Positions 49,510 through 64,000 of a DNA stretch of 64,000 nt are shown in pieces. Both the position numbers and the translations under genes were made by a program. Each line of letters begins with the position of its first letter. Position 1 is the stretch's first letter. Under the pieces are notes generated by a model, which made no database searches, was not told the origin of the DNA, and saw nothing but the letters and a program-made list of their open reading frames with translations. Origin of the DNA: a virus (Duplodnaviria; Caudoviricetes). Location: positions 3,303 through 67,302 of the IMG/VR virus record IMGVR_UViG_3300033061_000668; one strand, given 5' to 3'.

Positions 49510-49717
49510 AAAACAAGGGAAGCGTGACTCCGTCGGGAGACGGATGCTGTCGCACCTCGCCTCCATGCTTCGTTGCATCGTTGTTCAAGGCTTCCATCTC
49601 CTCAGAAGTGTAGCCTCGGATGGAGTCATTACGGATACCCGTGATAAAGTCCACCCACGTTTCATCGATCGATAGGAACTTTTGTTCCGTTGGTTTTGTA
49701 ATACAATAACAGTTCAT
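49493..49717 (-). CDS. Hypothetical protein
   Basis: 74 aa, coupled. Confidence 0.5.
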   Translation of the reverse strand: MNCYCITKPTEQKFLSIDETWVDFITGIRNDSIRGYTSEEMEALNNDATKHGGEVRQHPSPDGVTLPLFYDWGT

Positions 49718-49878
49718 CGTGAGCTCCTTTCATTATCTATGTAGATTGAAATGTCTGACTTTAACTCTGATGGTTTGATTTTGCCATTGGCTATATCGGC
49801 TAAAATGTAATAGACATCATCCATTTCTATTAACCAATCCTCAACCATCCTTGGTGTTATTTTTTTTGTTATACTCAT
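49714..49878 (-). CDS. Hypothetical protein (54 aa)
   Basis: MSITKKITPRMVEDWLIEMDDVYYILADIANG; ATGA-coupled both sides. Confidence 0.55.
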   Translation of the reverse strand: MSITKKITPRMVEDWLIEMDDVYYILADIANGKIKPSELKSDISIYIDNERSSR

Positions 49879-50093
49879 AGTGTTGCTCCTGACTTGTGCT
49901 CGTGAACCATGATACTCAACAAGCCAATGACCTTGGCTTCGAAGGTATCGATGAACTCACTACTAACTCTCGACGGGGCAGACTTCGTAGGGGCAAGCCC
50001 CATTTCCAGCCTCGTCTTATTACGCTCCTTGAACTTGGCATTCGCCATGTCCAGAGCCGACCGCTTAACTGATGCTCTATTTATTAGACTCAT
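49875..50093 (-). CDS. Putative histone-fold protein (alpha3-truncated)
   Basis: LINRASVK (alpha1), RVSSEF (L1), long alpha2, terminal GATL (L2). Confidence 0.55.
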   Translation of the reverse strand: MSLINRASVKRSALDMANAKFKERNKTRLEMGLAPTKSAPSRVSSEFIDTFEAKVIGLLSIMVHEHKSGATL

Positions 50094-50956
50094 ACAACTC
50101 CTTGCCCAAAGTATTTCAACTTTGGAAATAAGTTTTCCATACCTTCACGAATCCAAGGACTCCAGTATTTATCTGGAACCAACCAGCAACCAACTACAGC
50201 AAGGGCAACTGCTAGCGCAGTCTTCCTGCTATAACCTGTCCACCCGATCTTGCGAAGGGCAGACAATGACTTGGCTGCGAAACTACCCGCGGGTTGTGTC
50301 CCGTGGATGAGCAACGCAAACGGCTTGCCAGACTTGTAAGCGTGGCTGTCGTCGTGGTCGATCTCTAGCTTCTTGTCCTCTGCTTCCTTGGTACTGAACA
50401 CAACCTCTGCATACTTCAGGTCGTGCTTGGCGATCAACTCATCGTGGGCTCCGCCTCGACTTGCATTGAGCGCAAAGTTCTTTGGGATATCCCCGATACG
50501 CCGAATCCAGAAGGGTAAGCTTTTGGTATAGGCATAGAAGGTGCGGAGTGGTTGGCATCTGGCCACATGCATCCATGCATCGAAGTAGAACTGGTTGAAG
50601 AAGTCACCCGATACGTGAACCCGAATGATACCAGCTTGTCTTGGGAGACTTGCTTGAATCAGTTCGGACATCTCGGCTGTCGATTTGCCTTTCAGCAACT
50701 CGAAGTTGTGCCACCTCTGCAACCGCGTGTTCTTGTACTGAGCCTCATCGGATGCGGCAAAGCAACGGAACTTGGTGTCAGTACCGTCCGTAATCTTGCC
50801 CGTATCACGATTGGCTTTGGACAAACACTCCAATGCACCTGGGCAGGCAAACCCTGCTGGGAGACTGAAGGTCCAGATGTCTCGCCCAAGCTTCGCGTTA
50901 CCGCGATTAAATTTGAGCAAGTCTGATTTCACGGGTGTAGATCTTTTTGTTTTCAT
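50090..50956 (-). CDS. Gp88-like (radical-SAM-related) protein
   Basis: FSLPAGFACPG..EC...RCFA, RVHVSGDF, FYAYTK; start moved to ATG 50956. Confidence 0.7.
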   Translation of the reverse strand: MKTKRSTPVKSDLLKFNRGNAKLGRDIWTFSLPAGFACPGALECLSKANRDTGKITDGTDTKFRCFAASDEAQYKNTRLQRWHNFELLKGKSTAEMSELIQASLPRQAGIIRVHVSGDFFNQFYFDAWMHVARCQPLRTFYAYTKSLPFWIRRIGDIPKNFALNASRGGAHDELIAKHDLKYAEVVFSTKEAEDKKLEIDHDDSHAYKSGKPFALLIHGTQPAGSFAAKSLSALRKIGWTGYSRKTALAVALAVVGCWLVPDKYWSPWIREGMENLFPKLKYFGQGVV

Positions 50957-51185
50957 CTTTTTGGTTCCATGGTTTCTTACCTTCGAATCGTTCCTTGCGG
51001 ACCAGATTGCTATTGCTGTCCAATCCAGTTGCCTCACACCATTCGGCAAGAAGAACCGAAGCGTCTCCGCCTCGAAGCTTCAATGTTTCGATGATGGATG
51101 CATCCTCTTTGTGCCAGCCCAAGCCATAAGGGAACTTAGTTCCCGCGATGTCTCTAGCTTGCTTACCTGTGTACACGGCTTCCAT
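50907..51185 (-). CDS. Hypothetical protein
   Basis: 92 aa. Confidence 0.5.
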   Translation of the reverse strand: MEAVYTGKQARDIAGTKFPYGLGWHKEDASIIETLKLRGGDASVLLAEWCEATGLDSNSNLVRKERFEGKKPWNQKDENKKIYTREIRLAQI

Positions 51186-51325
51186 TATGATCTCCTCGCT
51201 AGTTCTTCCACAATGTGTCTGGCGTATAGGCTAGCGGATTCGTCGCCTTTCGCAGGACGCTCATCCGTTTTCGGATAAGACGTCCGTAGGTCTTCAAGTT
51301 TCTTCATCAGGTTTTCTTTTGTCAT
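51185..51325 (-). CDS. Hypothetical protein (46 aa)
   Basis: MTKENLMKKLEDLR...; TAATG coupling. Confidence 0.45.
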   Translation of the reverse strand: MTKENLMKKLEDLRTSYPKTDERPAKGDESASLYARHIVEELARRS

Positions 51326-51336
51326 ATATTTAATTT

Positions 51337-51576
51337 TCATGCAGGCTCCTTTTCATCAAGTTGATATTGAATTTCATTCTCAATACTTTCTTTAATTACT
51401 TGTTCTTCACTTTCGGAATCAATGTTTTCCAAGGCTTGATACCACATTCTATTGGTTATTTTTTGGTTCTCGAAGTTATCCTCAAACTCGTCTTTAGCCC
51501 AAAACATAACGTAAAGGACATCGGAAGGTTCGAAGAGAGCTAACTTCTTTTTTAGTTGACTTACTGTGTAGATCAT
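51337..51576 (-). CDS. Hypothetical acidic protein
   Basis: 79 aa, SD AAGGA. Confidence 0.6.
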   Translation of the reverse strand: MIYTVSQLKKKLALFEPSDVLYVMFWAKDEFEDNFENQKITNRMWYQALENIDSESEEQVIKESIENEIQYQLDEKEPA

Positions 51577-51591
51577 AATTTCCTTTTAATT

Positions 51592-51620
51592 GGGGCGGAT
51601 GGGATTTGCCCACCCGCCCC
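51592..51620 (-). promoter_or_regulatory. GC-rich RNA hairpin after rIIB (stability element or weak terminator)
   Basis: 12-bp stem; G-U pair only on the minus strand; no U-tract. Confidence 0.4.
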
Positions 51621-51626
51621 GAATGA

Positions 51627-52478
51627 TTAGCGATTCGATACTGCGTCGAGCAACTGACGAGCCGCGGTACGGATTGCCGTAACAAGGCTGTCGTCGCTGT
51701 CAGTTTCATCAGTCTCGACATCTTCTTCGTTGTAGATGTCATCTTCTGTGGAGTCATACGACTCAGCGTATGTCTTGGGTAGTGGGCCCGTGTAGTCCGC
51801 GACAACCTCATACTTTGCAGTACGAAGCTTCTGGAACTCGCAGTCATTGGGCACCGACACCACATCCTCGGGGTTGATCTTGACGATCACGACCCGACGA
51901 TCGGCACCACCGAAGTTGCCAGCGTAGTCGATCGAGCCAGCATGGAATCCGTAAGAACATCCGTTCTCGGGATTGTCGTCCACACTGCGACGAGCGATAC
52001 TCAACACCTGGCCGACTCTGTTCGAGAACTTGCCAGTGTGGTGGTCCATATAGTTCTCATCAACCGACTTGTAAGCCAAGAAACAGCCATCCTCAGTGAT
52101 CGGCATGTTCTTGTGCTCCAAGAATTGGTAGAGTTGAGCACGACTATTGTGGCTCGGATTGTTGTAGAGATTCTCCAAGAACCGAGTCATCGGTTCCACT
52201 GGTAGATTCTCCTGCATGAAGTTGAGGATTCGTTTGGCGATACGCTCGTCAACGATCTCACCGCGGTGATACACCGAACCGTCTTTCACCTCGACGGAGT
52301 TGCCGAGATACGCATTGAGTGCGTTGGTGATGTCCATCAATTGCTCGATGTCACCCTCCGCACGACCCTCTGCGATCGCGTTAATTACCATCTTTGCATT
52401 TGCGTGGTCACGACGGAGAGTGTGAGACTTCCCGTTGATGACCGCTGTTATTGTTTCGTCAGTTATGATGTAGTTCAT
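51627..52478 (-). CDS. rIIB: RIIB-like protein
   Basis: PITEDGCFLAYK, VDDNPENGCSYGFH, VKINPEDVVSVP, KLRTAKYEVV. Confidence 0.9.
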   Translation of the reverse strand: MNYIITDETITAVINGKSHTLRRDHANAKMVINAIAEGRAEGDIEQLMDITNALNAYLGNSVEVKDGSVYHRGEIVDERIAKRILNFMQENLPVEPMTRFLENLYNNPSHNSRAQLYQFLEHKNMPITEDGCFLAYKSVDENYMDHHTGKFSNRVGQVLSIARRSVDDNPENGCSYGFHAGSIDYAGNFGGADRRVVIVKINPEDVVSVPNDCEFQKLRTAKYEVVADYTGPLPKTYAESYDSTEDDIYNEEDVETDETDSDDSLVTAIRTAARQLLDAVSNR

Positions 52479-52499
52479 ACTTACTGTGTCCTTTCGTTT

Positions 52500-54839
52500 T
52501 TATTTTGTTTTGCGAGCTGCATCTACAAGATGCACATACTCGACAGTGCCTTCTGTTGCATACTCCATTACATCTGTCTGCCAGTTGTTGTGGCGGAATA
52601 ATGGGTACCGCGAAGCTATTTTAGTTCCCTCACCTTTCAGATCATAAGAAGGTTTAGGTAACAACGCTTTGAGTTGTTGATACACGCCTTTCTTATCATC
52701 GTTATTTGATCGGCCAAGAGCCCAAGTATTCTTTGGTTCTTCAAGCCAAGCTGGCAAGGTTTTCTCATCATTCTCTAAAGCAGCAACCATTTCCAGAACC
52801 TTATCCATAAAGATTCGGAATGGGCTGTCGGACTTGATGTCTTTGAGTGGACCAGTCTTTGGATTAGCCCAACGATCAAAGGAAGATCGCTCAAAGAAGC
52901 AACCCTCTTTCCTAAGCCTATCGGTGTGATACGTTCCACGAGAGTTGAAGAAACCCAAGACAGCATAACGATCAGCAATCTTCTGAGCCTTATCGGGATT
53001 AGCTTTGAGAAAAGCTCGTGTCCCCTCCTCGATTGCATCCTGCAATTTAGTCCAAGTTGCATCAACCTTCTTGTCGACATCAGCTTCCTTCACGCCATAG
53101 ATTTGATCGCAATACCCGATTGCTTTCAAGTATTCTTTTGCTCGATGCAGAGGATAATGCTCCTCCATATCAAAGTCCTTACCAGGCATTGACCACTTGA
53201 ATTGGTCGAGTGTTACGTAGACTTTCTTGCCAGTCGTAGGTGCTGCTGAGATTCCCCAATAGTCACTACGCTTGTCTTGGCGTTGATACTTGGCATATAA
53301 AGCAAACACATTCCCCTTGGTGTGTTTGACATTCTTGTCGTATTCAACTTCATCACCATTCGCATCGACACCTTTCTGCTTTGGCGGAGGCGTTGGCAAA
53401 GCCGACACCTGTTGGAATGTCATAGTTGCAAACCACGGGAGAGTCTTGTTGAGAAACTCTCGGCCACCGTTCTTATAGTTGATGATAGTTACGGTTGCCC
53501 CAGCTGGCCCGCTGTTCATCAGCCAGTGACGAACGCGAGCTTCCCCCGAGCCAGTGCCAGTATCATTGATCATCACGACTGCGTCTTTGTGGACAATCAG
53601 TTCATCGACCTCACGATCAACATTGAACTTAGCCTTGCCCCAACTACGCTTGCTTATGCTCATAGCACTGATGCCGTGAGACTTAAGTAACTCGATTTCA
53701 GTCTGATCTTTCTTGAGAGGCGAAGCACACAAGGGGATGCGATTATCGTCATGCATATCGATTCCCTTCCACTTCAGCTTGCCTTTCAGCTTCTTGACAA
53801 TGCCCTCACGGAAACTGGAGGAACTATATCCGCCAGTGCCAGTGAACCTACGCAAGATCAAGTGAGCTTGGAAGTAATCTGGAGCCGATTGAATGTCGGC
53901 AAGCAAGGTCGACCCCATCGAGTCAATGACTGGATTGAGATGCTTGACCAAGCCTTGGATTGTCTTCTGCGAATACTGCAAGTCCTCACGAGACGGAGCG
54001 ACTTGGACATCGCCAAGATCGACCCTCACGTAGACTCCAGCGTCAATCAACTGCTTGATTACTGGTGAGCCAGAGAAGTCAGACTTGAGCGGGTAAAGCA
54101 CAAGACCCATCTGGAGCCAGCTTTGGCCTTCACCATTGAAAGACCAGTTGGTTCCTTTGATAATGCCATCTTTGTATGTCTGAGTGGCATACTCTTTCTT
54201 CTCTTCTGGCGTTAGGTTGACGATGTCAGGCCGAACATCAAAGACACGATAGACCTGAATCGCAGTGCTGCGAAACCGACTAATGTCTTGAGGCCGAACT
54301 GGAATCGAGATCTCAACACCAGAGGGTTCGTTGGTCTTGGTCTCGCTTAACAGCGATGCCTTGCCCACCTCACTCTCGTCGATGTGACAATTCCAGATAC
54401 GCTTGACTCCGTCTTTGTGGGGGGTAACTCCGTTGTAATCGGTTACCGTGATGGCATCCGTATAGGCACCATACGATTTGCAACCGATACCAAGACAGCC
54501 CGTGAAGGCGTTGCTTGCCCGCTTGTCGCTACCACCATACGAGCAGAACAACTCTTGGAACTTCTCCTTGCCAAGTCCAGGGCCGAAGTCACGAATCGTG
54601 AATACTGGCTTCATACCAGTCGGAAGCGAGACTTGGATGGGCTTGTTGGTTTTACCATTGAGGATGTGACCCTCGCAGGCATTGGTGCCATACTCACGCA
54701 CAACCGCTCTGATCGGGTCAGAGTAAGCTTTGCGTAGGATACTGGCGATGTGACCGAGGTTGGACGCATCGATCTTGTAGTCGATCGTGTCGGTAACCCC
54801 GCTCGATACTGGCGTGTTTCTAGATGACGTAATTATCAT
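52500..54839 (-). CDS. rIIA: RIIA-like protein (GHKL/Hsp90-like ATPase N-terminus)
   Basis: VVREYGTNA, IRDFGPG, GCLGIGCKS; adjacent to rIIB. Confidence 0.88.
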   Translation of the reverse strand: MIITSSRNTPVSSGVTDTIDYKIDASNLGHIASILRKAYSDPIRAVVREYGTNACEGHILNGKTNKPIQVSLPTGMKPVFTIRDFGPGLGKEKFQELFCSYGGSDKRASNAFTGCLGIGCKSYGAYTDAITVTDYNGVTPHKDGVKRIWNCHIDESEVGKASLLSETKTNEPSGVEISIPVRPQDISRFRSTAIQVYRVFDVRPDIVNLTPEEKKEYATQTYKDGIIKGTNWSFNGEGQSWLQMGLVLYPLKSDFSGSPVIKQLIDAGVYVRVDLGDVQVAPSREDLQYSQKTIQGLVKHLNPVIDSMGSTLLADIQSAPDYFQAHLILRRFTGTGGYSSSSFREGIVKKLKGKLKWKGIDMHDDNRIPLCASPLKKDQTEIELLKSHGISAMSISKRSWGKAKFNVDREVDELIVHKDAVVMINDTGTGSGEARVRHWLMNSGPAGATVTIINYKNGGREFLNKTLPWFATMTFQQVSALPTPPPKQKGVDANGDEVEYDKNVKHTKGNVFALYAKYQRQDKRSDYWGISAAPTTGKKVYVTLDQFKWSMPGKDFDMEEHYPLHRAKEYLKAIGYCDQIYGVKEADVDKKVDATWTKLQDAIEEGTRAFLKANPDKAQKIADRYAVLGFFNSRGTYHTDRLRKEGCFFERSSFDRWANPKTGPLKDIKSDSPFRIFMDKVLEMVAALENDEKTLPAWLEEPKNTWALGRSNNDDKKGVYQQLKALLPKPSYDLKGEGTKIASRYPLFRHNNWQTDVMEYATEGTVEYVHLVDAARKTK

Positions 54840-55029
54840 TGACTTTTTCCTTTCTGTTCAGTTCAACTTTCCAGATGATGGCTTCACCATTCTCGTAACA
54901 GTAAGCAATTTTCTGCGCCCGTTCGTAGTGTGTGAATAACTGGTCGTTGAGTAATACATTGTCTTTGTCAAACAAAGCGTAGCCATCCCACTTTGTTATC
55001 TCGTCTGCAATCTTTACAGCCTCACTCAC
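54820..55029 (-). CDS. Hypothetical protein
   Basis: GTG 55029 overlaps upstream stop. Confidence 0.5.
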   Translation of the reverse strand: MSEAVKIADEITKWDGYALFDKDNVLLNDQLFTHYERAQKIAYCYENGEAIIWKVELNRKEKVNDNYVI

Positions 55030-55339
55030 CTGTAGGAATCCTACGAGCTGTGAAGTGCCACTCTTCGCTCGAGACGGTTGAAGCCTCGATGATGTGGTTG
55101 ACTTGCTCTGGTGTAAGATACTTGAGCAGGTTGGATTTGAGCAAAGGTTTGGCAAGTCTTGCCTTATCGTGCTCATCCATCTGAACCGTGAAGTGCTGGC
55201 CTACCCAGCTTTTGATTCCTTGCTTCGCGGATTCTAGGAATAGACTCCGATACTCTTTGCGTTTCTCATTGGATAGTTTGAGCCACTCGGTCGCCCGACC
55301 GAACTCATCTACCACTTCTGATGGTATTGTTAGTTCCAT
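55022..55339 (-). CDS. Hypothetical protein
   Basis: AAAGGACACA then ATG 55339. Confidence 0.55.
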   Translation of the reverse strand: MELTIPSEVVDEFGRATEWLKLSNEKRKEYRSLFLESAKQGIKSWVGQHFTVQMDEHDKARLAKPLLKSNLLKYLTPEQVNHIIEASTVSSEEWHFTARRIPTGE

Positions 55340-55365
55340 ATTGTGTCCTTTCATTTTGGTTTTCG

Positions 55366-55433
55366 TTTGTTTCCAGCCGATCGGCCAGACTGCTACCCCG
55401 CCGTGTGAGCGACGGGGCAGAGTGTCTAGTCGC
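55366..55433 (-). ncRNA. Repeated structured element, copy 1
   Basis: UAGAC/GUCUG stem, variable inner hairpin, GCC-GAUC-GGC hairpin, UGGAAACAAA tail. Confidence 0.55.
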
Positions 55434-55752
55434 TTAATTCAGCCGCCCTATCTTGCGCGATTTCTTGAGTCGCGTCATACAAGGCTTCCTGCGCGGCGTC
55501 AACAAGTTCTTTCGAAGGGTTAGGAACTTCTTCCATCCCTTCGTCTGGATAGATTGCCAAGCTATCGAACTCACATTCCGAGAACTCGCTTTGTTCGACA
55601 ATCCTGCTGTCGTAACCACGCGAACCCCAGAACTCATAAGAACCGACGCCGATATCTTCGGTCTCGGTATTGTGGATGGCTGTGCCAGTTACCGAATACT
55701 TCTTGCCGTCGTATTCGAACTTAACATCATCCTTCTCTACTTCGATTCTCAT
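55426..55752 (-). CDS. Hypothetical acidic protein
   Basis: 108 aa, contains GSYEFWG. Confidence 0.6.
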   Translation of the reverse strand: MRIEVEKDDVKFEYDGKKYSVTGTAIHNTETEDIGVGSYEFWGSRGYDSRIVEQSEFSECEFDSLAIYPDEGMEEVPNPSKELVDAAQEALYDATQEIAQDRAAELSD

Positions 55753-56051
55753 GCGAGTGCCGCGTCCTCGGCGAGCTGTCTCTTCTCTTCACGAATCGCA
55801 TGCATGATTACTTCCGCATCATACAACGCTTTGAGCCTGTCGGTGCGTTTGTATTTCTGACCAGTGATCTGAGATATGATCTCCATACAACGACCCGAGG
55901 TTGCTGTTCGAGTCAACATCATTCCACGATTCAAAGCTTCAAGACCTTGCATCGCTACAAGGAACTGAATAAATGGAACTCCGTTGAGGTTTCCGTCCGT
56001 CCGATCGATCGTCATAACTTTCTCTGTTACCTTTGCTTTTTTCTTTTTCAT
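55749..56051 (-). CDS. Hypothetical protein
   Basis: 100 aa, SD AAGGAG. Confidence 0.6.
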   Translation of the reverse strand: MKKKKAKVTEKVMTIDRTDGNLNGVPFIQFLVAMQGLEALNRGMMLTRTATSGRCMEIISQITGQKYKRTDRLKALYDAEVIMHAIREEKRQLAEDAALA

Positions 56052-56061
56052 TGGTTACTCC

Positions 56062-56274
56062 TTATGTAATGATTGCGCGGTTGTCTTGAATGACGATGCT
56101 ACGGGCATCGCCCCATACAACTGCTAGTGGTTGCTTCTTGCGTTTTCGATCGTGTGTAGCCACACGACAGTCAAAGCCTTTGATGGGGACGCACTGGTTC
56201 TGGTAGTGGATTGTCCACCAGACATCTTTGCGTCGTTGCGTCAAAGGTTTGTTGAAGTGGTAGAAGAATCTCAT
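56062..56274 (-). CDS. Hypothetical protein
   Basis: Start at ATG 56274 (MRFFYHFNKP), ATGA-coupled. Confidence 0.55.
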   Translation of the reverse strand: MRFFYHFNKPLTQRRKDVWWTIHYQNQCVPIKGFDCRVATHDRKRKKQPLAVVWGDARSIVIQDNRAIIT

Positions 56275-56486
56275 AATCTTTCCCACTCTCCCCAACCAAG
56301 CTCTTCGGATGTTGTTTCTGGACAAGAACCGTCTGATACTTTCCTGAGCCAACGCCTAGCTTTTGTTTCTTGACCTTCATGCTTTGCAGTGTCTAAGTCA
56401 ACAACAAGAACATCGACTCCCCTGGGAAGTCTGTACCCATGTACGAGTCCTTGTTCGACTGTTATAAGTAATGGTTTCTTTTTCAT
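56271..56486 (-). CDS. Hypothetical protein
   Basis: 71 aa, coupled. Confidence 0.55.
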   Translation of the reverse strand: MKKKPLLITVEQGLVHGYRLPRGVDVLVVDLDTAKHEGQETKARRWLRKVSDGSCPETTSEELGWGEWERL

Positions 56487-56746
56487 TTTTTTCTCCTTTT
56501 TAACTTTCTCCTATGTTTAGCAGTTGCCTTATCGACTATTAACACCGAAGACCAAGGCAGGGTCGTGTGCCCGCACTTGTCGCACTTGTGCAACAAGAGA
56601 TTGGGAATCCGTTCGCCAGCTACCTTGTAGACCTCTCTAACCTTTCGATACTTGCCTTTGCATTTGGGAGCGTTGTCTTCTAAGAAGTAACGAGCGCATT
56701 TATTCTGTAACCCCATATGTCCTCCTTTAATCCACCATATGATCAT
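56483..56746 (-). CDS. YgiT/MqsA-type zinc-ribbon protein
   Basis: C...C.G.Y...IPNL...KCDKCG. Confidence 0.5.
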   Translation of the reverse strand: MIIWWIKGGHMGLQNKCARYFLEDNAPKCKGKYRKVREVYKVAGERIPNLLLHKCDKCGHTTLPWSSVLIVDKATAKHRRKLKRRKK

Positions 56747-56936
56747 AAATCAGATCATAAAAAAGATTGGGATGATTTTCTTTTAACGCATCAAGATCCT
56801 CGTCACTCATCTTAGTGCCATCCTTATACTGGCCAGCACTAAAGAATGCATCGCAGAAGTCTGGAGCGTCTCTGCCATCAATACCTTCGAGCTCAAGTGA
56901 GCTCGTGTCGACAACCCGTCCGTTCAGCATTATCAT
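56727..56936 (-). CDS. Conserved acidic phage protein
   Basis: GID..DAPDFCDAF...G...SDEDLDAL; start at ATG 56936. Confidence 0.6.
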   Translation of the reverse strand: MIMLNGRVVDTSSLELEGIDGRDAPDFCDAFFSAGQYKDGTKMSDEDLDALKENHPNLFYDLIYDHMVD

Positions 56937-57181
56937 ATAGCTTCCTCCACTGGTTTGATTTGGTAGCCATATGCCCAATGCCCATTGTCCAAATCGAAAA
57001 CGCAGTTCTCGATAATGGTTGTAGGCACCCAAGGCACAAGGAGTCCGTTTTCTTTCTGGCCTGGACGGACGAGTTCAATCCGATGAACCTTCGCCTTCTC
57101 CCAGCCATCGTTGCCAAAGCTTCCGCGCCACCACACGGTGTCGCCTTGCCTAATCTCTTGAGGTGTCAGCTTGGTAGTCAT
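56933..57181 (-). CDS. Hypothetical SH3/KOW-like protein
   Basis: IRQGDTVWWRG...KAKVHRI. Confidence 0.55.
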   Translation of the reverse strand: MTTKLTPQEIRQGDTVWWRGSFGNDGWEKAKVHRIELVRPGQKENGLLVPWVPTTIIENCVFDLDNGHWAYGYQIKPVEEAI

Positions 57182-57513
57182 CGCATCATCTCCTCGATGA
57201 ACATCGGGGTATACTCGCCAACATAAGCCCAGCGGGTATTGAAGTGGAAGTATTCTTCAGCTTCATCCCAGCTCCACTTGTTGTCGAGTTGAAGTGTGTG
57301 GATGCAGGAAAAGATTCCATACACCGCCACTTGTGTTCCGTGTTGTCCATCTCGATAGGAAAGCCCAAGGAAAGCTTTGTCCAAGCCATCGAGTAGGATG
57401 ATGTTTTCCTTGTGGTCTTCATCAGCGTAGATGTCGATGAAGTCGAGTATCTTGAGCCTTCCAGCTTGGTCTTTGGTCAGCTTCGTCTTACTAGATTTCG
57501 TCTTGGTAGCCAT
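57178..57513 (-). CDS. Conserved phage protein
   Basis: DGLDKAFLG...AVY...EAEEYFHFN...AYVGEYTPMFI. Confidence 0.65.
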   Translation of the reverse strand: MATKTKSSKTKLTKDQAGRLKILDFIDIYADEDHKENIILLDGLDKAFLGLSYRDGQHGTQVAVYGIFSCIHTLQLDNKWSWDEAEEYFHFNTRWAYVGEYTPMFIEEMMR

Positions 57514-57877
57514 TGGATTCCTTTCTCATAAGGGCATCGACTTTGGCTTCGATGGCCTTGATGGTTCCGACAAACGCGTCAAGTTCAGATTTCTTCAGGA
57601 CTCCAGAGTTGAAATGATAATACATTTCATCACTGGCAACTCTTCCTTGGCTTGTGTATTCAAACACAGGGCCGACGTGACACACTGCTCTGTAACCTTT
57701 GGGGTTAGAGTAGTAGAACGCATAAGCTCCGCCCTCTGACAAGGTGGGAACTCTGTTTGTTCTGATGGTCACCTTCCCTTTCGGGAAGTTGCCAGTTGAT
57801 GTTCGGTCGATGGGGTCCAGCCCTAGCCTGCGCTGGAGCGTCCCCTTTTCAGCTACGACTTCTATTGGGTAACTCAT
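57491..57877 (-). CDS. Hypothetical protein
   Basis: 128 aa, SD AAAGGA. Confidence 0.55.
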   Translation of the reverse strand: MSYPIEVVAEKGTLQRRLGLDPIDRTSTGNFPKGKVTIRTNRVPTLSEGGAYAFYYSNPKGYRAVCHVGPVFEYTSQGRVASDEMYYHFNSGVLKKSELDAFVGTIKAIEAKVDALMRKESNGYQDEI

Positions 57878-58041
57878 TTGGTTTCCTTTCTATAGTTTTC
57901 GACTAATTGTTTGATAGGTTCGTGGTCAATGTAACTTAAGAGATCTTCAACCAATTCATGCGTCGATTGGCCGTAAAACCTCTCATATACAAACTCGCAC
58001 TCTGCTTCCGTGCAAGTATCTAAGTATTTGTCAGCCTTCAT
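57874..58041 (-). CDS. Hypothetical protein (55 aa)
   Basis: MKADKYLDTCTEAECEFVYERFY; ATGA-coupled both sides. Confidence 0.5.
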   Translation of the reverse strand: MKADKYLDTCTEAECEFVYERFYGQSTHELVEDLLSYIDHEPIKQLVENYRKETK

Positions 58042-58223
58042 TTGCCCAACTTGATCATCAGCGTACCGATGACAAGCTCCAAGTAAATGATTGCCGATGT
58101 CGCCCCGCGGTAGAATTCAAAGCCAAGAGGCCGAAACTCCACGTTAGCCACGATGGCGTTGTTGAATCTGTTTGCGAAGAAGTGGAAACGCATCCACCCC
58201 CAACCAAGCTTAACTTTAATCAT
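58038..58223 (-). CDS. Hypothetical protein
   Basis: Start at ATG 58223. Confidence 0.45.
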   Translation of the reverse strand: MIKVKLGWGWMRFHFFANRFNNAIVANVEFRPLGFEFYRGATSAIIYLELVIGTLMIKLGK

Positions 58224-58563
58224 TTTCGTTCTCCTCATTGTTGATTGTTTCTTCGATGTCGATTCCCTGCTCTTTCTTGCGAGCACGGAACAACCAGTCA
58301 CCAGTCCACGAGCGGATAACCGCAAGCAAACGGCGGAAGGTTGGGAAACGCCACGGGCGTTCCAGCTCACCCAAAGGCAAGCTGACCCAGCGGGCGTCAC
58401 CGACTTTCACATTCAGTTCCTTCGGCACCATCGTGTCATCGGTGTAGATGTCGCCAGCTACCTCGACCACGCCAGTGTTCAAGCGGAACTTCCGCCCAAG
58501 ATTGTGACCTTTCAAGATCTCAATCATTTGGGCATCGACCCAAAGCTTATCCCCAGGTTTCAA
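58216..58563 (-). CDS. Hypothetical protein
   Basis: 115 aa, TTG start overlapping upstream stop. Confidence 0.5.
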   Translation of the reverse strand: MKPGDKLWVDAQMIEILKGHNLGRKFRLNTGVVEVAGDIYTDDTMVPKELNVKVGDARWVSLPLGELERPWRFPTFRRLLAVIRSWTGDWLFRARKKEQGIDIEETINNEENEND

Positions 58564-58700
58564 CTGATTTCCTCCAACGCCATCTTAAGAAGGCGGTTGA
58601 TTAGAATCACAGCCGCCACAATGGAAGCTGGGATAATTAGGAATGCACAGACGAGTTGGATGATGATCGTCATCACCTCAAAGAACTCCGCCCAACTCAC
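58560..58700 (-). CDS. Small membrane peptide (46 aa)
   Basis: MSWAEFFEVMTIIIQLVCAFLIIPASIVAAVILIN. Confidence 0.45.
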   Translation of the reverse strand: MSWAEFFEVMTIIIQLVCAFLIIPASIVAAVILINRLLKMALEEIS

Positions 58701-58930
58701 GAGACCACCTCGAAGTTTAGGCGCGTTCCAAACACGCGGTTGTTGTGGTGAAGCTTGGTCAAAGCTTCCGCACGGGTTTGATGCACATCACGCACCGCGT
58801 CCGCTTCGGTCAAGCCCTCACCAGTCCAGCCATCAATGCTGGCCATATAATAACGGCCGTTCAGACTTCCGTCCGATGACACGCCGTGTTTCACTTCAAT
58901 GACTATCTTACCTTCGTTATTCAGTTTCAT
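58697..58930 (-). CDS. Hypothetical protein
   Basis: 77 aa. Confidence 0.55.
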   Translation of the reverse strand: MKLNNEGKIVIEVKHGVSSDGSLNGRYYMASIDGWTGEGLTEADAVRDVHQTRAEALTKLHHNNRVFGTRLNFEVVS

Positions 58931-58961
58931 ATTTACTGATTCTTTCTTGGTTAGTGTTACT

Positions 58962-59024
58962 TTTGTTTCCAGCCTATCGGCCAGACTTGTGCCCCCGTGC
59001 TAGGGGGGCACTCTGTCTATCCGC
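58962..59024 (-). ncRNA. Repeated structured element, copy 2
   Basis: 25/26-nt identity to copy 1 (58962-58987 vs 55366-55391); different but paired inner hairpin GTGCCCCC/GGGGGCAC. Confidence 0.55.
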
Positions 59025-59101
59025 CTAGTTCTTTCCGTGCCAAAGCGTTGGTGATGGGGTTTGGTAAGCTAACCAAATCCACAACTTAATTCGCTCGACA
59101 C

Positions 59102-59386
59102 TCATCCGCACATAACCCAAGCAAGCCCAAGCTTCTTGGTTACCTTGTTGCGTTGGTAAGCTTGGTCGGGAGTCATCATCGCTTTCTTGATGATGCTCCG
59201 ATGAATATCAGTCAACGCATACTGATACTCCAAGCCTTCTTTCCGCTTGATCGCGATAGTGGCTCGGCTCTGGCGGTTCGCCATCTTGACGTTCCTTTGC
59301 CAGTCTTTCTTATTGAGTCTGCGACCATAGTAAGCTTGGCTTGCATTGGTCATGATATACTTGGGGTCGATAGATCTACCGATCAT
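59102..59386 (-). CDS. Hypothetical basic protein
   Basis: 94 aa. Confidence 0.55.
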   Translation of the reverse strand: MIGRSIDPKYIMTNASQAYYGRRLNKKDWQRNVKMANRQSRATIAIKRKEGLEYQYALTDIHRSIIKKAMMTPDQAYQRNKVTKKLGLAWVMCG

Positions 59387-59748
59387 ATGTCACGCCCTCC
59401 GCTTTGAGTGATGACCATCTTCCACTGACCCATCTTTGAGATGTAAGCTCTGCGTCTGAACATCTGTCCAGGTGCCTCGCAGTCATCCCTGTCCACATCA
59501 ATCCAGCTCGCATAGTCCAGCGAGTGAACGAACGTAGAGTCATAGTGGTTGGGTAATGGCATCTCGGATTCGAAGACATACCAGTGAGTCCAGCTATCGT
59601 CCGAGGGTAGCTTGGAGACATCAATCGCCCGCTTGCCGACATACTCCGACATAGGGTGGTGGTTTCGGACTCCTCCTTTCACCAGCTTGCCGTAGTACTC
59701 GACTCCGTTGAGCTGGATGTAGGCGATTATTGGTAGGGGCACGCTCAT
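59383..59748 (-). CDS. Hypothetical protein
   Basis: Start at ATG 59748, coupled. Confidence 0.55.
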   Translation of the reverse strand: MSVPLPIIAYIQLNGVEYYGKLVKGGVRNHHPMSEYVGKRAIDVSKLPSDDSWTHWYVFESEMPLPNHYDSTFVHSLDYASWIDVDRDDCEAPGQMFRRRAYISKMGQWKMVITQSGGRDI

Positions 59749-59948
59749 TTGTTTACCTCTCCGTAGCCATCGCATTCCTCGCAGTGCGAGGCCATGCCGT
59801 TAGGCCATACATTGTTCCAATCCAAGCCCGTGCCCTTGCAAACAGGGCAGGCAGTCTTGGTTGGGTCTGCACCTTCCGCTGTGCCAGCGGCGAAAGCTCC
59901 GAACTGCTCGGGACTCCAGCGGGTCTGGCCGTTGATTTCGTGACTCAT
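59745..59948 (-). CDS. Small zinc-ribbon protein (DnaJ-type CxxCxGxG)
   Basis: CPVCKGTG...CEECDGYG. Confidence 0.6.
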   Translation of the reverse strand: MSHEINGQTRWSPEQFGAFAAGTAEGADPTKTACPVCKGTGLDWNNVWPNGMASHCEECDGYGEVNK

Positions 59949-60163
59949 ACGGTTTCCTCCCCGAACTCGAAGGTGAAGGTGGAGTTGCCGTGCAGGTGCT
60001 GGACGTTAATCCAGTGGTCACCACAGGTGAACCGCCGTGTCCCTCCGCGGGTCAGCTCACGCAGGAACTCGCCGATGGGCGTGTTCTCGGAAGCTTCCCA
60101 GTTAAGGACGCTGACCCTGTCTTTGGCCGTGTCCACGGCCATTATCGTATTCGTGATACTCAT
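59945..60163 (-). CDS. Hypothetical protein
   Basis: 72 aa, SD AAGGAG. Confidence 0.55.
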   Translation of the reverse strand: MSITNTIMAVDTAKDRVSVLNWEASENTPIGEFLRELTRGGTRRFTCGDHWINVQHLHGNSTFTFEFGEETV

Positions 60164-60184
60164 TTGGTTTCTGTCTCCTTTTGG

Positions 60185-60436
60185 TTATTGCGAGCGACCG
60201 CCATTGTCCAGCACATTCCGAAGTGCCGAACGCTGACCGACCCTGCGCGAAATTCGTTTGTAGTCTGCATAGCTATCGGGACTCATCACATTGATTGCCC
60301 CGCCCGTCTTGTCTGAGTAGACCATTGCACCCTTGACCTTGAGTTCGGGGTGCAGGAATGCACAGCCCTTGCACTTGGTAAAGCCAAGGTTGAACCGCTC
60401 CATCTCAATCGAATCGTCACAGATAACGCAGTTCAT
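60185..60436 (-). CDS. TraR/DksA C4-type zinc-finger-like protein
   Basis: CVICDDSIEMERF...TKCKGC. Confidence 0.55.
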   Translation of the reverse strand: MNCVICDDSIEMERFNLGFTKCKGCAFLHPELKVKGAMVYSDKTGGAINVMSPDSYADYKRISRRVGQRSALRNVLDNGGRSQ

Positions 60437-60924
60437 ACATCGTGCCTTGCTTGCCAGAGTAGAGCCAGCTTACGGCGGTAGACCGCCCGAACCGACTCGA
60501 CTGGAGTCTTGCCAAACCTGATCTTTCTGACCAGCCCACGGATAACATCATTGATGGGTTTGGCCTTGGGCTTACGACTAAAGGCATATAGTTTCCACTG
60601 GTCGGGTTTACCACCAGACCGAATCTCGGCCAGATATCCAGGGTTCTTCATCGTGTCCAGCTTGTGGGTATAAGGGGTGTCGGTATGAAAGCCGAGGGCT
60701 ACCGAAGACTTGCCAGACAACTTGCGGCAAGGGGCAGTCACCCCATCGATGGTGAGAGTCCTGTTCCTTCTTACTGGCTTACGGCGGGCTTGCGGGATAT
60801 GGGGCTTCTGGATATCCATCTGTAAGTCCTCCCATCGTTCAGCTCCGCTCATCGGGTCATGCACATCGCGTGCACGGGCTTGTTTACGCAGGAGTCCGAA
60901 GTCCTGCAAGTATGTGTTACTCAT
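60433..60924 (-). CDS. Hypothetical basic protein
   Basis: 163 aa, SD AAGGAG. Confidence 0.55.
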   Translation of the reverse strand: MSNTYLQDFGLLRKQARARDVHDPMSGAERWEDLQMDIQKPHIPQARRKPVRRNRTLTIDGVTAPCRKLSGKSSVALGFHTDTPYTHKLDTMKNPGYLAEIRSGGKPDQWKLYAFSRKPKAKPINDVIRGLVRKIRFGKTPVESVRAVYRRKLALLWQARHDV

Positions 60925-60983
60925 TGGTAGTTACTCCTTGGGTTAGGGTTGGTGCATCCTCGAATCGAGGAATCATTGATGCC

Positions 60984-61012
60984 TTGACCTTATGCACAAT
61001 GCTAGATAAGCT
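60984..61012 (+). promoter_or_regulatory. Promoter TTGACC-N17-TAAGCT (leaderless)
   Basis: 6 nt upstream of ATG 61019. Confidence 0.6.
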
Positions 61013-61018
61013 AGCCTT

Positions 61019-61483
61019 ATGCCTAAAGCCTTGGCTATAGACTGGAAAGCAGTTGAACGAGACTTCGTTGGAGGTAAGACTCGAAGCTTCATTGCATCGA
61101 CGTATGGGTTGAACCTCAACACCTTGGACAGTCATGCAAGGAGATGCAAGTGGGCTGAAAGGAAACAGTCCAATCTTGCCAAGTTGAGCACGCAGTTCGA
61201 TAGACAAGTAGTGCAGACTGCTACTGATAAGCAGGCTCGATATCTGTCGCGTATCACCAATCAAGTAGACCACAGCTTGGACGTCCTCGAATCCGAGATG
61301 CCTAGCTCCCGCAAAGAATTGAAAGATCATATTGAAGTCCTCGAGAAAGTTGATCGTATAGCTCGTCCCACATTGGGCTTGGCTTCGCAGAATCAAGGAA
61401 GCAGTGGCAAGACAATCGTTAACCTCGCTGTCCTTCGAACCGATGAGCCAGCAGCCCCCAAACCCGTAATCGATATTTCCTAG
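61019..61483 (+). CDS. Putative terminase small subunit (HTH)
   Basis: IDWKAVERDFVGG.TRSFIASTYGL..NTL...RCKW N-terminal HTH plus helical oligomerisation region. Confidence 0.55.
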   Translation: MPKALAIDWKAVERDFVGGKTRSFIASTYGLNLNTLDSHARRCKWAERKQSNLAKLSTQFDRQVVQTATDKQARYLSRITNQVDHSLDVLESEMPSSRKELKDHIEVLEKVDRIARPTLGLASQNQGSSGKTIVNLAVLRTDEPAAPKPVIDIS

Positions 61484-61545
61484 AATCATTGATTCGTGGA
61501 TAGCTCGGTGGTTAATCATAATAATGTTATTGCTTGGTAAAGGAA

Positions 61546-61575
61546 GGGAGGGGGTTTCCCCCCTCCCCCCTTTAT
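61546..61575. terminator. Probable bidirectional terminator
   Basis: GGGAGGGGG/CCCCCTCCC stem between convergent genes with T-rich flanks on both strands. Confidence 0.55.
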
Positions 61576-61581
61576 CTCTAA

Positions 61582-62052
61582 TTACTCAGCGGAATCGGCA
61601 ATGATGTCATCGATTTGTTCGGCTGTGTATTTGGGAGTGCCATCGGCTTTCGTCTTGGCTTTCAGTTTCGCACGCTGTGCTGAGTGCTGGTCATTCTCCT
61701 TCACTTCGAAGTAGATTTTCCCCTTCGCCTTGTCATAAAAGGCTCTGTCCATCGCCAGCGTTCCTTTAATGACTCCCTCGTGGGATTTGTGGAGGAGTTC
61801 CGCCCCCATCTTATTGAATGATGCCTTGGCTTCTAGGAATCCGAGGGTGGCTTCCCTGCCCTTCAATCCCGTCACTTTCTTAAAGGCGGTATTGCCCGCC
61901 ATCCTGCCCGTATCCGTCACAAGGAGATTCTGCTCCTCGCTCCAATTTACGAACCGAGCCTTAGTTACCCTTCCCGTTGTGGCGTTCGCTTTTTCTTCTG
62001 TAACTTGGTGGCGAGTCATCGCCAACCCTTCTGCTATGTTTGCTAGTTTCAT
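61582..62052 (-). CDS. Hypothetical protein (first gene of leftward early block)
   Basis: 156 aa, preceded by AAAGGACACA. Confidence 0.6.
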   Translation of the reverse strand: MKLANIAEGLAMTRHQVTEEKANATTGRVTKARFVNWSEEQNLLVTDTGRMAGNTAFKKVTGLKGREATLGFLEAKASFNKMGAELLHKSHEGVIKGTLAMDRAFYDKAKGKIYFEVKENDQHSAQRAKLKAKTKADGTPKYTAEQIDDIIADSAE

Positions 62053-62078
62053 ATGTTTAGTTTTTCCTTGTGTCCTTT

Positions 62079-62159
62079 CCCTTCCCCCCTCCCCCTATCG
62101 GGTTCGTGTGGGGTAGAATCGGACAACCCCTATACGCACCCCCCTCCCCCCTCCCCCCC
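62079..62159 (-). other. G-tract cluster (G-quadruplex-forming potential)
   Basis: Minus strand G7-A-G6-A-G6-TGCGTATA-G4 (62159-62127) and G5-A-G6-AA-G3 (62095-62079), followed on the plus strand by an AT-rich stretch. Confidence 0.6.
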
Positions 62160-62201
62160 GTGGGAAATTTGTAAACGTTACACCTACTTTAAAAATTTAT
62201 T

Positions 62202-62942
62202 TTATTTTTTAGTTTTTTCAGCTTCTTCCTTAAGGAAGTTTAAGTAATGCGACATGCTGCCGCGGTAGGTAAATGATCCGTCGTGGCCAAGGTCAATATT
62301 GGTATCAAGCATAATCTTGTAACCGCGCTCGCGAAGCTTGGTGCAGAAGTAAAAGTCTTCCGAGAGCATCTCGCCGTTCTTGATACCGCACTGAAACAAA
62401 TTCTTAACTTCAATCTGGTCGACGTTTAATTCGGGCTGGGTCACCTTCTCGGTATAAAACTCAGGCTCGTGGTCCATCAAGTCCTGCATGGCTTTCTTAG
62501 ATACGCGAAGGAATCCGGTACCAGTTGCCTCAACTTCAATGAGCCCGCGTTCGTCGGGAGTCTCGTTACCCTTAATCATCTTGATCGTAAAGTGACAGGA
62601 GTTGTGAATCTTCTTACGGTAAGTTCCGCAGACCACGTCTTCATCATGCAATACAAGCTTGAGCAGATCCTCGGGCTCCCAGGAAATGTCGGCGTCAATC
62701 CAAACAATACTTTCCCAATCATTCTTATCGTTGCGGAAAATGTCGGACACAATCTTGTTGCGGGCCATCGGAATCAAAGAATGGTTGGACAGAAAGGTAA
62801 CGTGGAGTTTCAAGCCATGGCTTTGGAACAAAGCGCTGGACCGAACAAGCGAGTTGACGTAGTTAACAGAAACATTTCCGCCATAACAAGGCGTGGCAAC
62901 TACGATTCCATTTGTATTGCGGGGTTTGTGTTTCTTGCTCAT
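62202..62942 (-). CDS. GT-A fold glycosyltransferase
   Basis: VATPCYGG, SLIPMARN, WIDAD (DxD), GTGFL, LSEDFYFC, LGHDG. Confidence 0.8.
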   Translation of the reverse strand: MSKKHKPRNTNGIVVATPCYGGNVSVNYVNSLVRSSALFQSHGLKLHVTFLSNHSLIPMARNKIVSDIFRNDKNDWESIVWIDADISWEPEDLLKLVLHDEDVVCGTYRKKIHNSCHFTIKMIKGNETPDERGLIEVEATGTGFLRVSKKAMQDLMDHEPEFYTEKVTQPELNVDQIEVKNLFQCGIKNGEMLSEDFYFCTKLRERGYKIMLDTNIDLGHDGSFTYRGSMSHYLNFLKEEAEKTKK

Positions 62943-63121
62943 TTGCGTCTCCTCTTTGATTTGTACTCATTGCTGATTCCAGTGGGTGGTACTTTCCACT
63001 TACCAAAGTTTGAAGTCGAACCGTAATGGAACACAGGGGCATGGTGCGTAGATCGATAAGCGCTGATTCGAAGGTTGAAGATGTAGCCAAATAGTCTGAA
63101 GTTAAGTCCAATTGATTTCAT
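62939..63121 (-). CDS. Hypothetical protein
   Basis: GGAGG upstream of ATG 63121; coupled to glycosyltransferase. Confidence 0.45.
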   Translation of the reverse strand: MKSIGLNFRLFGYIFNLRISAYRSTHHAPVFHYGSTSNFGKWKVPPTGISNEYKSKRRRK

Positions 63122-63228
63122 AGTTTCCTCCTGCACCAACCGCATCGTTTACGGCTTTGGTCATAAACCCAATAGATAAATAGACCAATGAAGATTCCCC
63201 AAAGCATTCGCAGAGTGTCTCAAACACT

Positions 63229-63256
63229 TTGACTTTTGTAAAGGACAAATCATACT
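63229..63256 (+). promoter_or_regulatory. Promoter TTGACT-N16-CATACT
   Basis: No start codon follows; predicted start about 63263. Confidence 0.6.
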
Positions 63257-63262
63257 AGCCTC

Positions 63263-63348
63263 GCTTTGCTGGGTGGGCGTTTTAGCACTTTCCTTGCCCT
63301 TCAGATTAGCCAAAGAGAGAAGTGCGTCAGGCAATCACCAGTCAAAGC
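63263..63348 (+). ncRNA. Putative stand-alone small RNA (about 86 nt)
   Basis: 5' and 3' ends pair (GCUUUG-CUGG / CCAG-U-CAAAGC); inner GCACUU/AAGUGC; 5' end coincides with the predicted start site. Confidence 0.5.
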
Positions 63349-63420
63349 ATCTAAAATAACCAATTTAACCCTAAAGGGCTACGATTTAGGGTGGGGGGGT
63401 GTCGCCGAGAATAGAGGGGA

Positions 63421-63448
63421 TTGACTTCTAACTAATTAAGACCACTAT
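63421..63448 (+). promoter_or_regulatory. Promoter TTGACT-N16-CACTAT (leaderless)
   Basis: 5 nt upstream of GTG 63454. Confidence 0.6.
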
Positions 63449-63453
63449 GGTGT

Positions 63454-64000
63454 GTGCCGACTCTGTTCCCTCTTCAAGTACGTACTATCGATAACGTGCT
63501 TGCCAGCCAGATAGCTGGCTTATTCCAAAATGGCGCAATCTTACAACTACCGTTAACGTCTCAATATTTTGTAGACGCCAACAGAACTGATACCTACGTC
63601 GAAGACGGTAACCTCTTAACGCCATTCAAAACATTGAGTGCTGCATATGCAGCTGCAAAAATTGGAGCCACCAGACTCAATCCCAAGTACATCAACTTGC
63701 TCAGCAGCATCACAGAAAATTTAACCATGGACACAGGTTATGTGGGATTGCAAGGATTCACCAATTCTGGTGTAAGAGCTCCCTTGTATTTGAATGGCAC
63801 CATCACCATTGCTCCTACTGCAGGCACAATCACTGACAATTTTTTTGGCATCACAAATTTGGCTATTCTCAAATCTGAAGTGACCAGTGGCAATTGCATT
63901 GATGTGCTGGGAGGTGCTGTACCCTTGAGAGTATTCCTGGAATCTGTTTGGCTTCAAAATGGAAGCACTGGTTCTTTTGGGATAAACATTGATAACACTG
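63454..64000 (+). CDS. Beta-helix/tailspike-like protein (DUF1565-like N-terminus), truncated by window end
   Basis: Not in ORF track (no stop). Open frame: MPTLFPLQ...YFVDANRTDTYVEDGNLLTPFKTLSAAYAAA... Confidence 0.6.
   Translation, partial: MPTLFPLQVRTIDNVLASQIAGLFQNGAILQLPLTSQYFVDANRTDTYVEDGNLLTPFKTLSAAYAAAKIGATRLNPKYINLLSSITENLTMDTGYVGLQGFTNSGVRAPLYLNGTITIAPTAGTITDNFFGITNLAILKSEVTSGNCIDVLGGAVPLRVFLESVWLQNGSTGSFGINIDNT

Follow-up and report, generated by a model that had tools for sequence, protein, structure and literature searches.

A strongly covarying RNA structure in operons of uncultured freshwater phages, tentatively read as an adaptor between exchangeable genes

The 64,000-nt stretch of DNA from a lake-water phage analysed here (the window; bases 3303-67302 of the 67,302-bp virus record IMGVR_UViG_3300033061_000668) contains two copies of an intergenic element that is a genuine, selected, and strongly covarying RNA structure within operons. 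Attention had been drawn to the element by a 26-mer, AGTCTGGCCGATMGGCTGGAAACAAA, which matches the window only at 55366-55391 and 58962-58987, on the minus strand in both cases, and has no further site in the entire virus record; with up to three mismatches, no match is expected by chance (100 shuffles). In both copies, the minus strand reads, in the order described in the original prediction, stop codon, UAGAC, GC-rich hairpin, GUCUG, mini-hairpin GCC-GAUM-GGC, UGGAA, A-rich leader, and start codon (at 55339 and 58930, respectively). The hairpins enclosed by UAGAC and GUCUG are unrelated in sequence, yet both form pairs (11 and 8 bp in copies 1 and 2, respectively), and copy 1 starts directly on the stop codon of the upstream gene, as had been claimed. 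The motif was therefore real, but the repeated 26-mer is only part of the actual unit, which is the entire intergenic module of about 100 nt from stop codon to start codon.

There is ample comparative evidence for the RNA structure. A covariance model (R1) was built and homologues were searched, as the original prediction had proposed, and the covariation that it had claimed for the mRNA-sense strand is present, far beyond what two copies could show. In an alignment of 82 distinct instances (A1), which were left after the removal of chance hits in GC-rich coding DNA, the structure was modelled as three helices, P1 (5 bp), P2 (10 pairs), and P3 (3 bp). The proposed pairs form in 98.1% of the cells; shuffles reach 83%, and sliding of the 3' partners gives 22-49%. 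The covariation score amounts to 0.41, compared with 0.14 in the shuffles. Double compensatory changes occur in nine of the ten P2 pairs, and the closing pair of P1 varies between C-G (52 instances), U-G (28), and U-A (2). Because many of the covarying sequences are related, the cell counts overstate the number of independent events, and the safer figure is that of at least five unrelated P2 stems, which are accompanied by sub-variants (ACACA/UGUGU to ACGCA/UGCGU to AACCA/UGGUU). Since G-U cells outnumber A-C cells by 167 to 12, the fold is assigned to the gene-sense strand, that is, to the transcript. The same P1, P2, and P3 are predicted by RNAalifold without guidance.

Variation is free in P2 and in both strands of the internal loop. 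AGAC/GUCU of P1 is invariant across the 82 instances and UGGAA is likewise unchanging, although this invariance is partly a matter of ascertainment, because most instances were recovered with patterns that fix the conserved box. The P3 stem is kept, apart from a covariation of its outer pair from G-C to C-G in the variant CCC-GUGU-GGG, which coexists with GCC-GAUA-GGC within one genome (L009); the P3 loop reads GAUA, GAUC, GUGU, or GUUA, with only the first G constant. As a check on the bias, loci were also fetched via a downstream protein family instead of the motif patterns. All ten elements obtained in this way carry GTCTGGCC...GGCTGGAA unchanged, with GAUA, GUUA, or GUGU in the P3 loop, which softens the ascertainment but does not remove it. 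The impression that the element belongs to no familiar RNA family, hammerhead included, was borne out by the search against Rfam 15, which gave no hits at the gathering score in the whole window and none at E <= 10 on either strand of 55300-55480, a permissive search that covered hammerhead, twister, pistol, hatchet, and hepatitis delta virus-like ribozymes.

The conserved parts of the element can also pair differently. GUCUG can quit P1 and thereby extend P3 to CUGGCC/GGCUGG, and a shared G/A position keeps its pairing in both P1 and the extended P3. In another alternative, the 5' flank and the 5' half of P3 form a rod of 19-23 bp, whose predicted energy lies on average only 1.6 kcal/mol below that of the P3 state; as the lowest pairs of the rod are not kept in the loop variants, we consider it no more than a possible conformer. 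A lower-stem extension of P1 was rejected: pairs 18-70 and 19-69 do not vary, 20-68 and 21-67 for the most part lack pairing, and CUA/UAG is lost in the loop variants.

In the window, copy 1 has a folding energy of -34.3 kcal/mol on the minus strand (z -4.7) and -25.2 kcal/mol on the plus strand; the respective values for copy 2 are -27.5 (z -3.2) and -26.3 kcal/mol. R1 has no match in the window beyond these two copies. A mini-hairpin CCC-GATA-GGG at about 62093-62102 was rejected as a third copy, as such sites occur at chance frequency and it obtains no R1 score. The two modules comprise the following features.

55340..55444, minus strand: copy 1, whole module (5' flank, P1, P2, P3, UGGAA, and A-rich leader to the start codon); R1 match at 55359-55444 (74.0 bits, E 1e-21)
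55426..55428, minus strand: stop codon UAG of the upstream open reading frame (ORF) 55426-55752, identical to the first 3 nt of P1 of copy 1
55424..55428, minus strand: copy 1, 5' strand of P1, UAGAC; pairs with 55386-55390
55393..55420, minus strand: copy 1, P2 hairpin with an 11-bp stem (55410-55420 with 55393-55403) and the loop CUCACA
55386..55390, minus strand: copy 1, 3' strand of P1, GUCUG; its CUG alternatively joins the extended P3 (CUGGCC/GGCUGG)
55376..55385, minus strand: copy 1, P3 mini-hairpin GCC-GAUC-GGC
55371..55375, minus strand: copy 1, UGGAA, single-stranded and invariant
55340..55370, minus strand: copy 1, leader, A-rich, poor in G and U, predicted unpaired; Shine-Dalgarno sequence GAAAGGA at 55346-55352, followed by the ATG (55337-55339) of ORF 55022-55339
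58931..59035, minus strand: copy 2, whole module; R1 match at 58955-59035 (82.3 bits, E 2e-24)
59020..59027, minus strand: copy 2, 5' flank UAG-GCGGA; the CG of the flank is kept in 81-82 of the 82 instances
59015..59019, minus strand: copy 2, 5' strand of P1, UAGAC
58989..59011, minus strand: copy 2, P2 hairpin with an 8-bp stem (GUGCCCCC/GGGGGCAC) and a 7-nt loop
58982..58986, minus strand: copy 2, 3' strand of P1, GUCUG
58972..58981, minus strand: copy 2, P3 mini-hairpin GCC-GAUA-GGC
58967..58971, minus strand: copy 2, UGGAA, invariant
58931..58966, minus strand: copy 2, leader, A-rich, predicted unpaired, followed by the ATG (58928-58930) of ORF 58697-58930

ORF 59102-59386 ends 78 nt before copy 2, and the intervening stretch (59028-59105, minus strand) is conserved in relatives. 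Homologues of its product in two loci (L065 and L108) extend to a stop codon within P1; ORF 59102-59386 may have had its C terminus replaced, or the stretch 59028-59105 may be in a different frame.

The stop codon of the upstream gene, whatever this gene may be, either coincides with the first three bases of P1 or precedes P1 by 7-9 nt. In almost every instance measured, the start codon follows 31-37 nt past GGAA. The leader is predicted to be unpaired, and the conserved block extends across it as far as the ribosome-binding site. The genes on the two sides assort independently: one upstream family is combined with eight downstream families, a downstream family of 172 aa is joined to at least six upstream families, and the counterpart of copy 2 in L013 and L016 precedes a different downstream gene. 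Because the flanking genes assort freely and the 172-aa gene also occurs without the element, comparison of the loci indicates that the element is an interchangeable intergenic module, not a gene-specific regulator, and that it forms a mosaic joint between freely swapped genes. A cassette-shuffling site was among the roles listed in the original prediction, and this suggestion receives direct comparative support, as the element is found between numerous unrelated upstream and downstream genes, in every combination.

The gene directly downstream of the element in L040 (1611-2459) is an ArdC-type anti-restriction gene that encodes an ArdcN domain and a zincin-like peptidase domain (Pfam, 1e-38; PHROG, 1e-75). 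Other downstream genes include one with a weak Ocr-like hit and several ORFans with isoelectric points of 4.1-4.4; these very acidic proteins may be DNA mimics. In three loci (L157, L165, and L169), a promoter-like site of the form TTGAC-N17/18-TANNNT precedes the 172-aa gene, and the conserved hairpin in the leader (GAGGGAG...CUCCC) is not that of the element.

Pattern scans recovered the element from 12 IMG/VR contigs and at least 120 metagenome loci, and most contig names recur among freshwater-lake sets. R1 detects one or two copies per locus, and among the matches listed no metagenome locus has more than two. Judged by these sequences, the family has many members, which come from two groups of uncultured freshwater phages; these groups are otherwise unrelated, yet both carry the element almost letter for letter. 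Group 1 consists of relatives of the window (67-82 kb) with two copies at syntenic positions, even where the rIIA proteins are only about 54% identical. Group 2 consists of contigs of about 38 kb that have almost no proteins in common with the window and carry a head-portal-TerL-TerS block and a primase block on one strand. A short operon on the opposite strand has a promoter-like TTGACG-N18-TAGTCT just ahead of the start codon of its first gene, and the element sits between gene 2 and the hypervariable gene 3. Positioned between these genes and behind the promoter-like site, the element is therefore transcribed as an internal part of the mRNA. Promoter-like sites of the form TTGAC-N17/18-TANNNT are a feature of group 2. 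In L064 (7990-8050), the promoter-like site is only 7 nt ahead of the ATG of the first gene, which suggests a leaderless mRNA.

The two groups have only TerL, two small basic late-region proteins, and a few ORFans in common, and a trans-acting factor shared by both was rejected on these grounds. One of the basic proteins (51 aa; window 45801-45956, plus strand) is 80-86% identical to its group-2 counterpart, an unusually high conservation; the other, a Cys-containing protein (98 aa; window 44324-44620, plus strand), is 42-48% identical. Neither TerL nor the early region of the window has a match among GenBank phages in megablast, blastn, or tblastn searches. The 81,730-bp contig IMGVR_UViG_3300027971_000043 (L016, L018, L023, and L025) contains four copies of the element, with two versions per syntenic site, and probably represents not a larger genome but a concatemer, or else two related strains merged into a chimera.

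In the window, the copies lie in a minus-strand block that runs from about 63121 down to 48871 and comprises a tight series of small ORFans followed by rIIA (52500-54839) and rIIB (51627-52478); they fill two of its five sizeable intergenic gaps. The assignment of this region to early expression in the original prediction is plausible. Other gene blocks have promoters of the form TTGAC-N16/17-YANNNT ahead of them, whereas the minus strand has none from 48230 to 64000, and the block is therefore probably read as very long transcripts. Two early intergenic gaps of the minus strand (62085-62165 and 61545-61575) contain repeated G-runs of the type GGGGGGAGGGGGG; three runs precede gene 62052-61582, and a complementary C-run is located near 63390 (about 63385-63400). 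The G-runs could be a G-quadruplex or another repeated signal. A further run makes the hairpin GGGAGGGGG-UUUC-CCCCCUCCC, which is followed by UUCCUUU and represents the sole canonical terminator-like site in the block (about 61548-61567).

The reading that we favour, tentatively and with slightly less than even prospects, is that of a cis-acting intercistronic RNA adaptor that serves mRNA processing, stabilisation, or insulation and is also a recombination joint. A ribonuclease or RNA-binding factor of the host would recognise its conserved base, which consists of the 5' GCG, AGAC/GUCU, the P3 stem, and UGGAA. A candidate nuclease would be double-strand-specific, like ribonuclease III (RNase III) at the sites of phage T7, and would target the rod of 19-23 bp in which the 5' flank is paired with the 5' half of P3. 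Either cleavage or mere refolding, once the upstream ribosome stops 0-9 nt before P1, would trigger the change. The upstream message would then end in the P2 hairpin, whereas the downstream message would begin with the hairpin CUGGCC-N4-GGCUGG and an unstructured leader, and any downstream gene would thereby gain a stable, context-independent transcript. In T7, the early cistrons are set apart by RNase III sites, with hairpins left at the 3' ends, and bacterial mRNAs gain stability from hairpins at their 5' termini. The irregular duplex of about two turns within a transcript that characterises RNase III sites is found in the predicted rod conformer. Because the module of about 100 nt matches across different phages, in near-identical form, it may also provide a homologous-recombination joint for the swapping of early accessory genes, anti-restriction genes included.

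Several points weigh against such an adaptor. We purely infer that the element is cleaved at all. RNase III needs little sequence specificity, which leaves the invariant AGAC/GUCU, GCC/GGC, and UGGAA unexplained. The invariance could in part stem from recent horizontal spread. One or two copies per genome are few for a general processing signal. Within the rod, the GUUA and GUGU loop variants no longer form the lowest pairs (CUA/UAG), and the 5'-flank pairs 18-70 and 19-69 are uninformative, as they never vary. The downstream genes do not need the element, because the 172-aa gene also occurs without it, behind a sigma-70-like promoter, a plain hairpin, or nothing, and distant homologues of this gene never have it. 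The functional interpretation offered in the original prediction, which had named processing, a small ribozyme, antitermination, protein binding, and cassette shuffling, is only partly supported; of these roles, processing or protein binding agrees with the adaptor that we tentatively favour.

Among the other explanations, an RNA that controls transcription is unlikely. It would act either as a processive antiterminator, similar to put of HK022 or to lambda nut with P3 in the role of boxB, or as a translation-sensing attenuator that flips P1 to the extended P3. The two adjacent stem-loops with a conserved base, the one or two copies per genome inside long early operons, and the stop codon 0-9 nt from P1 all agree with it, the alternative folds are nearly isoenergetic, and a single long transcript from a region that has no minus-strand promoter between 48230 and 64000 may need help. 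However, neither fold is followed by a U-tract terminator, the only canonical terminator-like hairpin of the block lies upstream of copy 2, not downstream, the P3 loop is variable past its first G, unlike boxB, and no candidate antiterminator protein common to the two phage groups was found. An intrinsic terminator in the element itself was rejected, as it has no U-tract (GCC comes after P1-P2, whereas GGAA and an A-run come after P3) and the terminator scan lists neither copy. It is quite unlikely that the element is a true cassette of terminator stem-loop and promoter, like the early-promoter stem-loops (PeSLs) of T4. The box would then be read by a sigma factor of an unusual kind or by a polymerase that the phage specifies, and it might work as a hairpin promoter like those of N4 and LUZ7. 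Strict conservation ends right past GGAA, as at a start site, and we take GGAAC to resemble the -35 elements of extracytoplasmic function (ECF) sigma factors and GCCGATA the -10 element of sigma-28. The layout matches that of the T4 PeSLs, in which stem-loop, conserved box, Shine-Dalgarno sequence, and start codon lie beside swapped ORFans (PMC4122927), and N4 and LUZ7 have small GC hairpins 11-15 nt upstream of their start sites (PMC4496689, PMC9163698). By contrast, neither copy has a -35/-10 pair, which excludes a sigma-70-type promoter, and the TANNNT-like TAGGCT is lost in the GAUC and GUGU variants. The coexistence of CCC-GUGU-GGG and GCC-GAUA-GGC in one genome (L009) excludes sequence-specific recognition of the duplex there and, together with the promoter scans, counts against sigma-28, sigma-54, and sigma-70 readings of the box. 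The wobbles favour the non-template (RNA) strand, whereas N4 needs a hairpin on the template strand, and the 3892-aa ORF of the window (32075-43753, plus strand) belongs to no PHROG family and has only helicase-type hits (ResIII, AAA_34, and Strawberry-notch, Sno-type), with none to an RNA polymerase, so that an N4-type promoter for a virion RNA polymerase was rejected. An ECF-sigma domain in the same protein, which would use GGAAC as its -35 element, was rejected because residues ~880-1130 (~34780-35395) have no Pfam sigma hit at E <= 10; neither a polymerase nor a sigma gene is evidently common to both phage groups.

A decoy within the mRNA that acts against host defence, as a solitary mimic of a CRISPR repeat, similar to the RNA anti-CRISPRs (Racrs), or as a mimic of another host RNA, is very unlikely. 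The small GC hairpin with its GGAAAC tail resembles the AUUGAAAC repeat end, P3 and the tail bear what we take to be a loose resemblance to CRISPR repeats of types I-F, I-D, and I-C, and a short RNA sequence strictly kept across unrelated phages fits the mimicry of a host molecule. The element precedes anti-restriction-type genes, and Racr candidates are intergenic and clustered with anti-CRISPR genes (PMC10651486). However, the conserved 20-mer yields three chance hits and no repeats among 185,579 species represented by one genome each, and no array carries it among the at least 120 metagenome loci, which have two copies at most among the matches listed. Moreover, the tail varies in length and sequence past GGAA, the conserved stretch is shorter than usual repeats, and P1 and the 5' flank would have no role. 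Highly improbable is a novel small ribozyme that would separate the cistrons of the polycistronic mRNA by cleaving itself. Several classes of small ribozymes are typically found in phage intergenic regions, where the element likewise presents a compact, conserved, and covarying fold with a superficial likeness to a minimal hammerhead (CUG, a small GC hairpin, and GAAAC). This likeness is confined to letters, as the ANGA of the CUGANGA core is missing and two helices meet without a third stem or three-way junction. No ribozyme family scores even at the permissive threshold, the P1-P2 internal loop is not conserved and is reduced to a 2-nt bulge in the largest group, and few conserved unpaired nucleotides are available for an active site. 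Hardly any more credible is a site that folds as single-stranded DNA, either for attC-like recombination in cassette exchange or as a priming or origin signal. The architecture of attC consists of inverted cores that flank a variable, symmetric centre, and GGTC and GTC are recognition triplets of T7-type primase; in the element, inverted cores flank such a centre right past stop codons, with genes shuffled on both sides. However, these cores read YAGAC...GTCTR and not RYYYAAC...GTTRRRY, there is no recombinase among the annotated proteins of the neighbourhood, and the largest group has one site per locus, hence no flanked cassettes. The coding strand folds better, and conservation spans the leader up to the ribosome-binding site, as would suit homologous exchange and a role in expression. 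A ribosomal bypass of the T4 gene 60 type (GGA-UAG ... GGA) was rejected because it fits just one sequence class.

If the adaptor reading is true, the element would be nature's equivalent of the synthetic insulators with which operons are designed, and also a handle for new anti-defence genes, as whatever lies downstream would be a candidate. The element marks a slot where anti-restriction-type genes are exchanged, and R1 can be used as the seed of a new RNA family that is absent from Rfam. A bolder version of the adaptor, itself unlikely, is a bistable RNA device in which a ribosome at the built-in stop, self-cleavage, or a factor-guided cut at the P1/P3 junction would flip the rod to the 5'-terminal hairpin and thus give a recombined downstream anti-defence gene a standard, insulated, and stabilised message. 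Such a device would constitute a natural 'plug-and-play' expression socket common to unrelated phages.

Among known systems, the early mRNA of T7, and similarly that of SP82, has RNase III sites in the form of irregular hairpins of about two turns with an internal loop, which lie between early cistrons and are similar to one another in sequence. T7 has about ten such sites, the first of which precedes the anti-restriction gene 0.3 (ocr). The element is alike in its irregular hairpin of about two turns between early cistrons, whereas its cleavage is putative and its invariance exceeds what RNase III needs. With put of HK022 and nut of lambda, it has in common the two copies per genome, the location in early operons, and a cis-acting intergenic combination of conserved sequence and stem-loops, but it has neither sequence similarity to them nor a boxA or a conserved P3 loop, and neither downstream terminators nor an N-like protein were identified. 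The hairpin promoters of N4 and LUZ7 (PMC4496689, PMC9163698) are similar in that a small GC-rich hairpin is part of a conserved box upstream of early genes; the element differs in its occurrence in a phage without a detectable virion RNA polymerase, in its fold on the non-template strand, and in its unconserved 4-nt loop, compared with the 3-nt loop with a central purine in N4. RNA anti-CRISPRs and solitary repeat units (PMC10651486) are likewise short, conserved hairpin-plus-tail RNAs in viral intergenic DNA beside anti-defence genes, but they are separate small RNAs, whereas the element is embedded in mRNA and has an additional conserved helix around a large hairpin.

The start-associated sequences (SAS) and extended SAS (ESAS) of Cluster K mycobacteriophages (PMC3203893) are also conserved motifs at a fixed distance before the starts of non-structural genes of different families; in some cases an inverted repeat, interrupted by a variable spacer, lies upstream, and the stop codon of the preceding gene can fall inside the motif. 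The 13-nt SAS overlaps the ribosome-binding site, is located 3-7 nt from the start, and is present in many copies per genome, whereas the box of the element ends 31-37 nt before the start, has one or two copies, and shows demonstrated covariation. The PeSLs of T4 (PMC2839356, PMC4122927) are intergenic modules of up to about 100 nt with the same succession of stem-loop, conserved box, Shine-Dalgarno sequence, and start codon; they are situated in regions that are early or hyperplastic, where ORFans and adaptive genes flank them, and have been implicated in the swapping of these flanking genes. Unlike the element, PeSLs carry a -35/-10 promoter of the sigma-70 type and occur in long series; the element, in turn, has a covarying RNA hairpin in its box, a stem-loop enclosed by an invariant helix, and only one or two copies per genome. 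The element differs from both PeSLs and start-associated motifs in that its conserved part is demonstrably an RNA structure, not a promoter.

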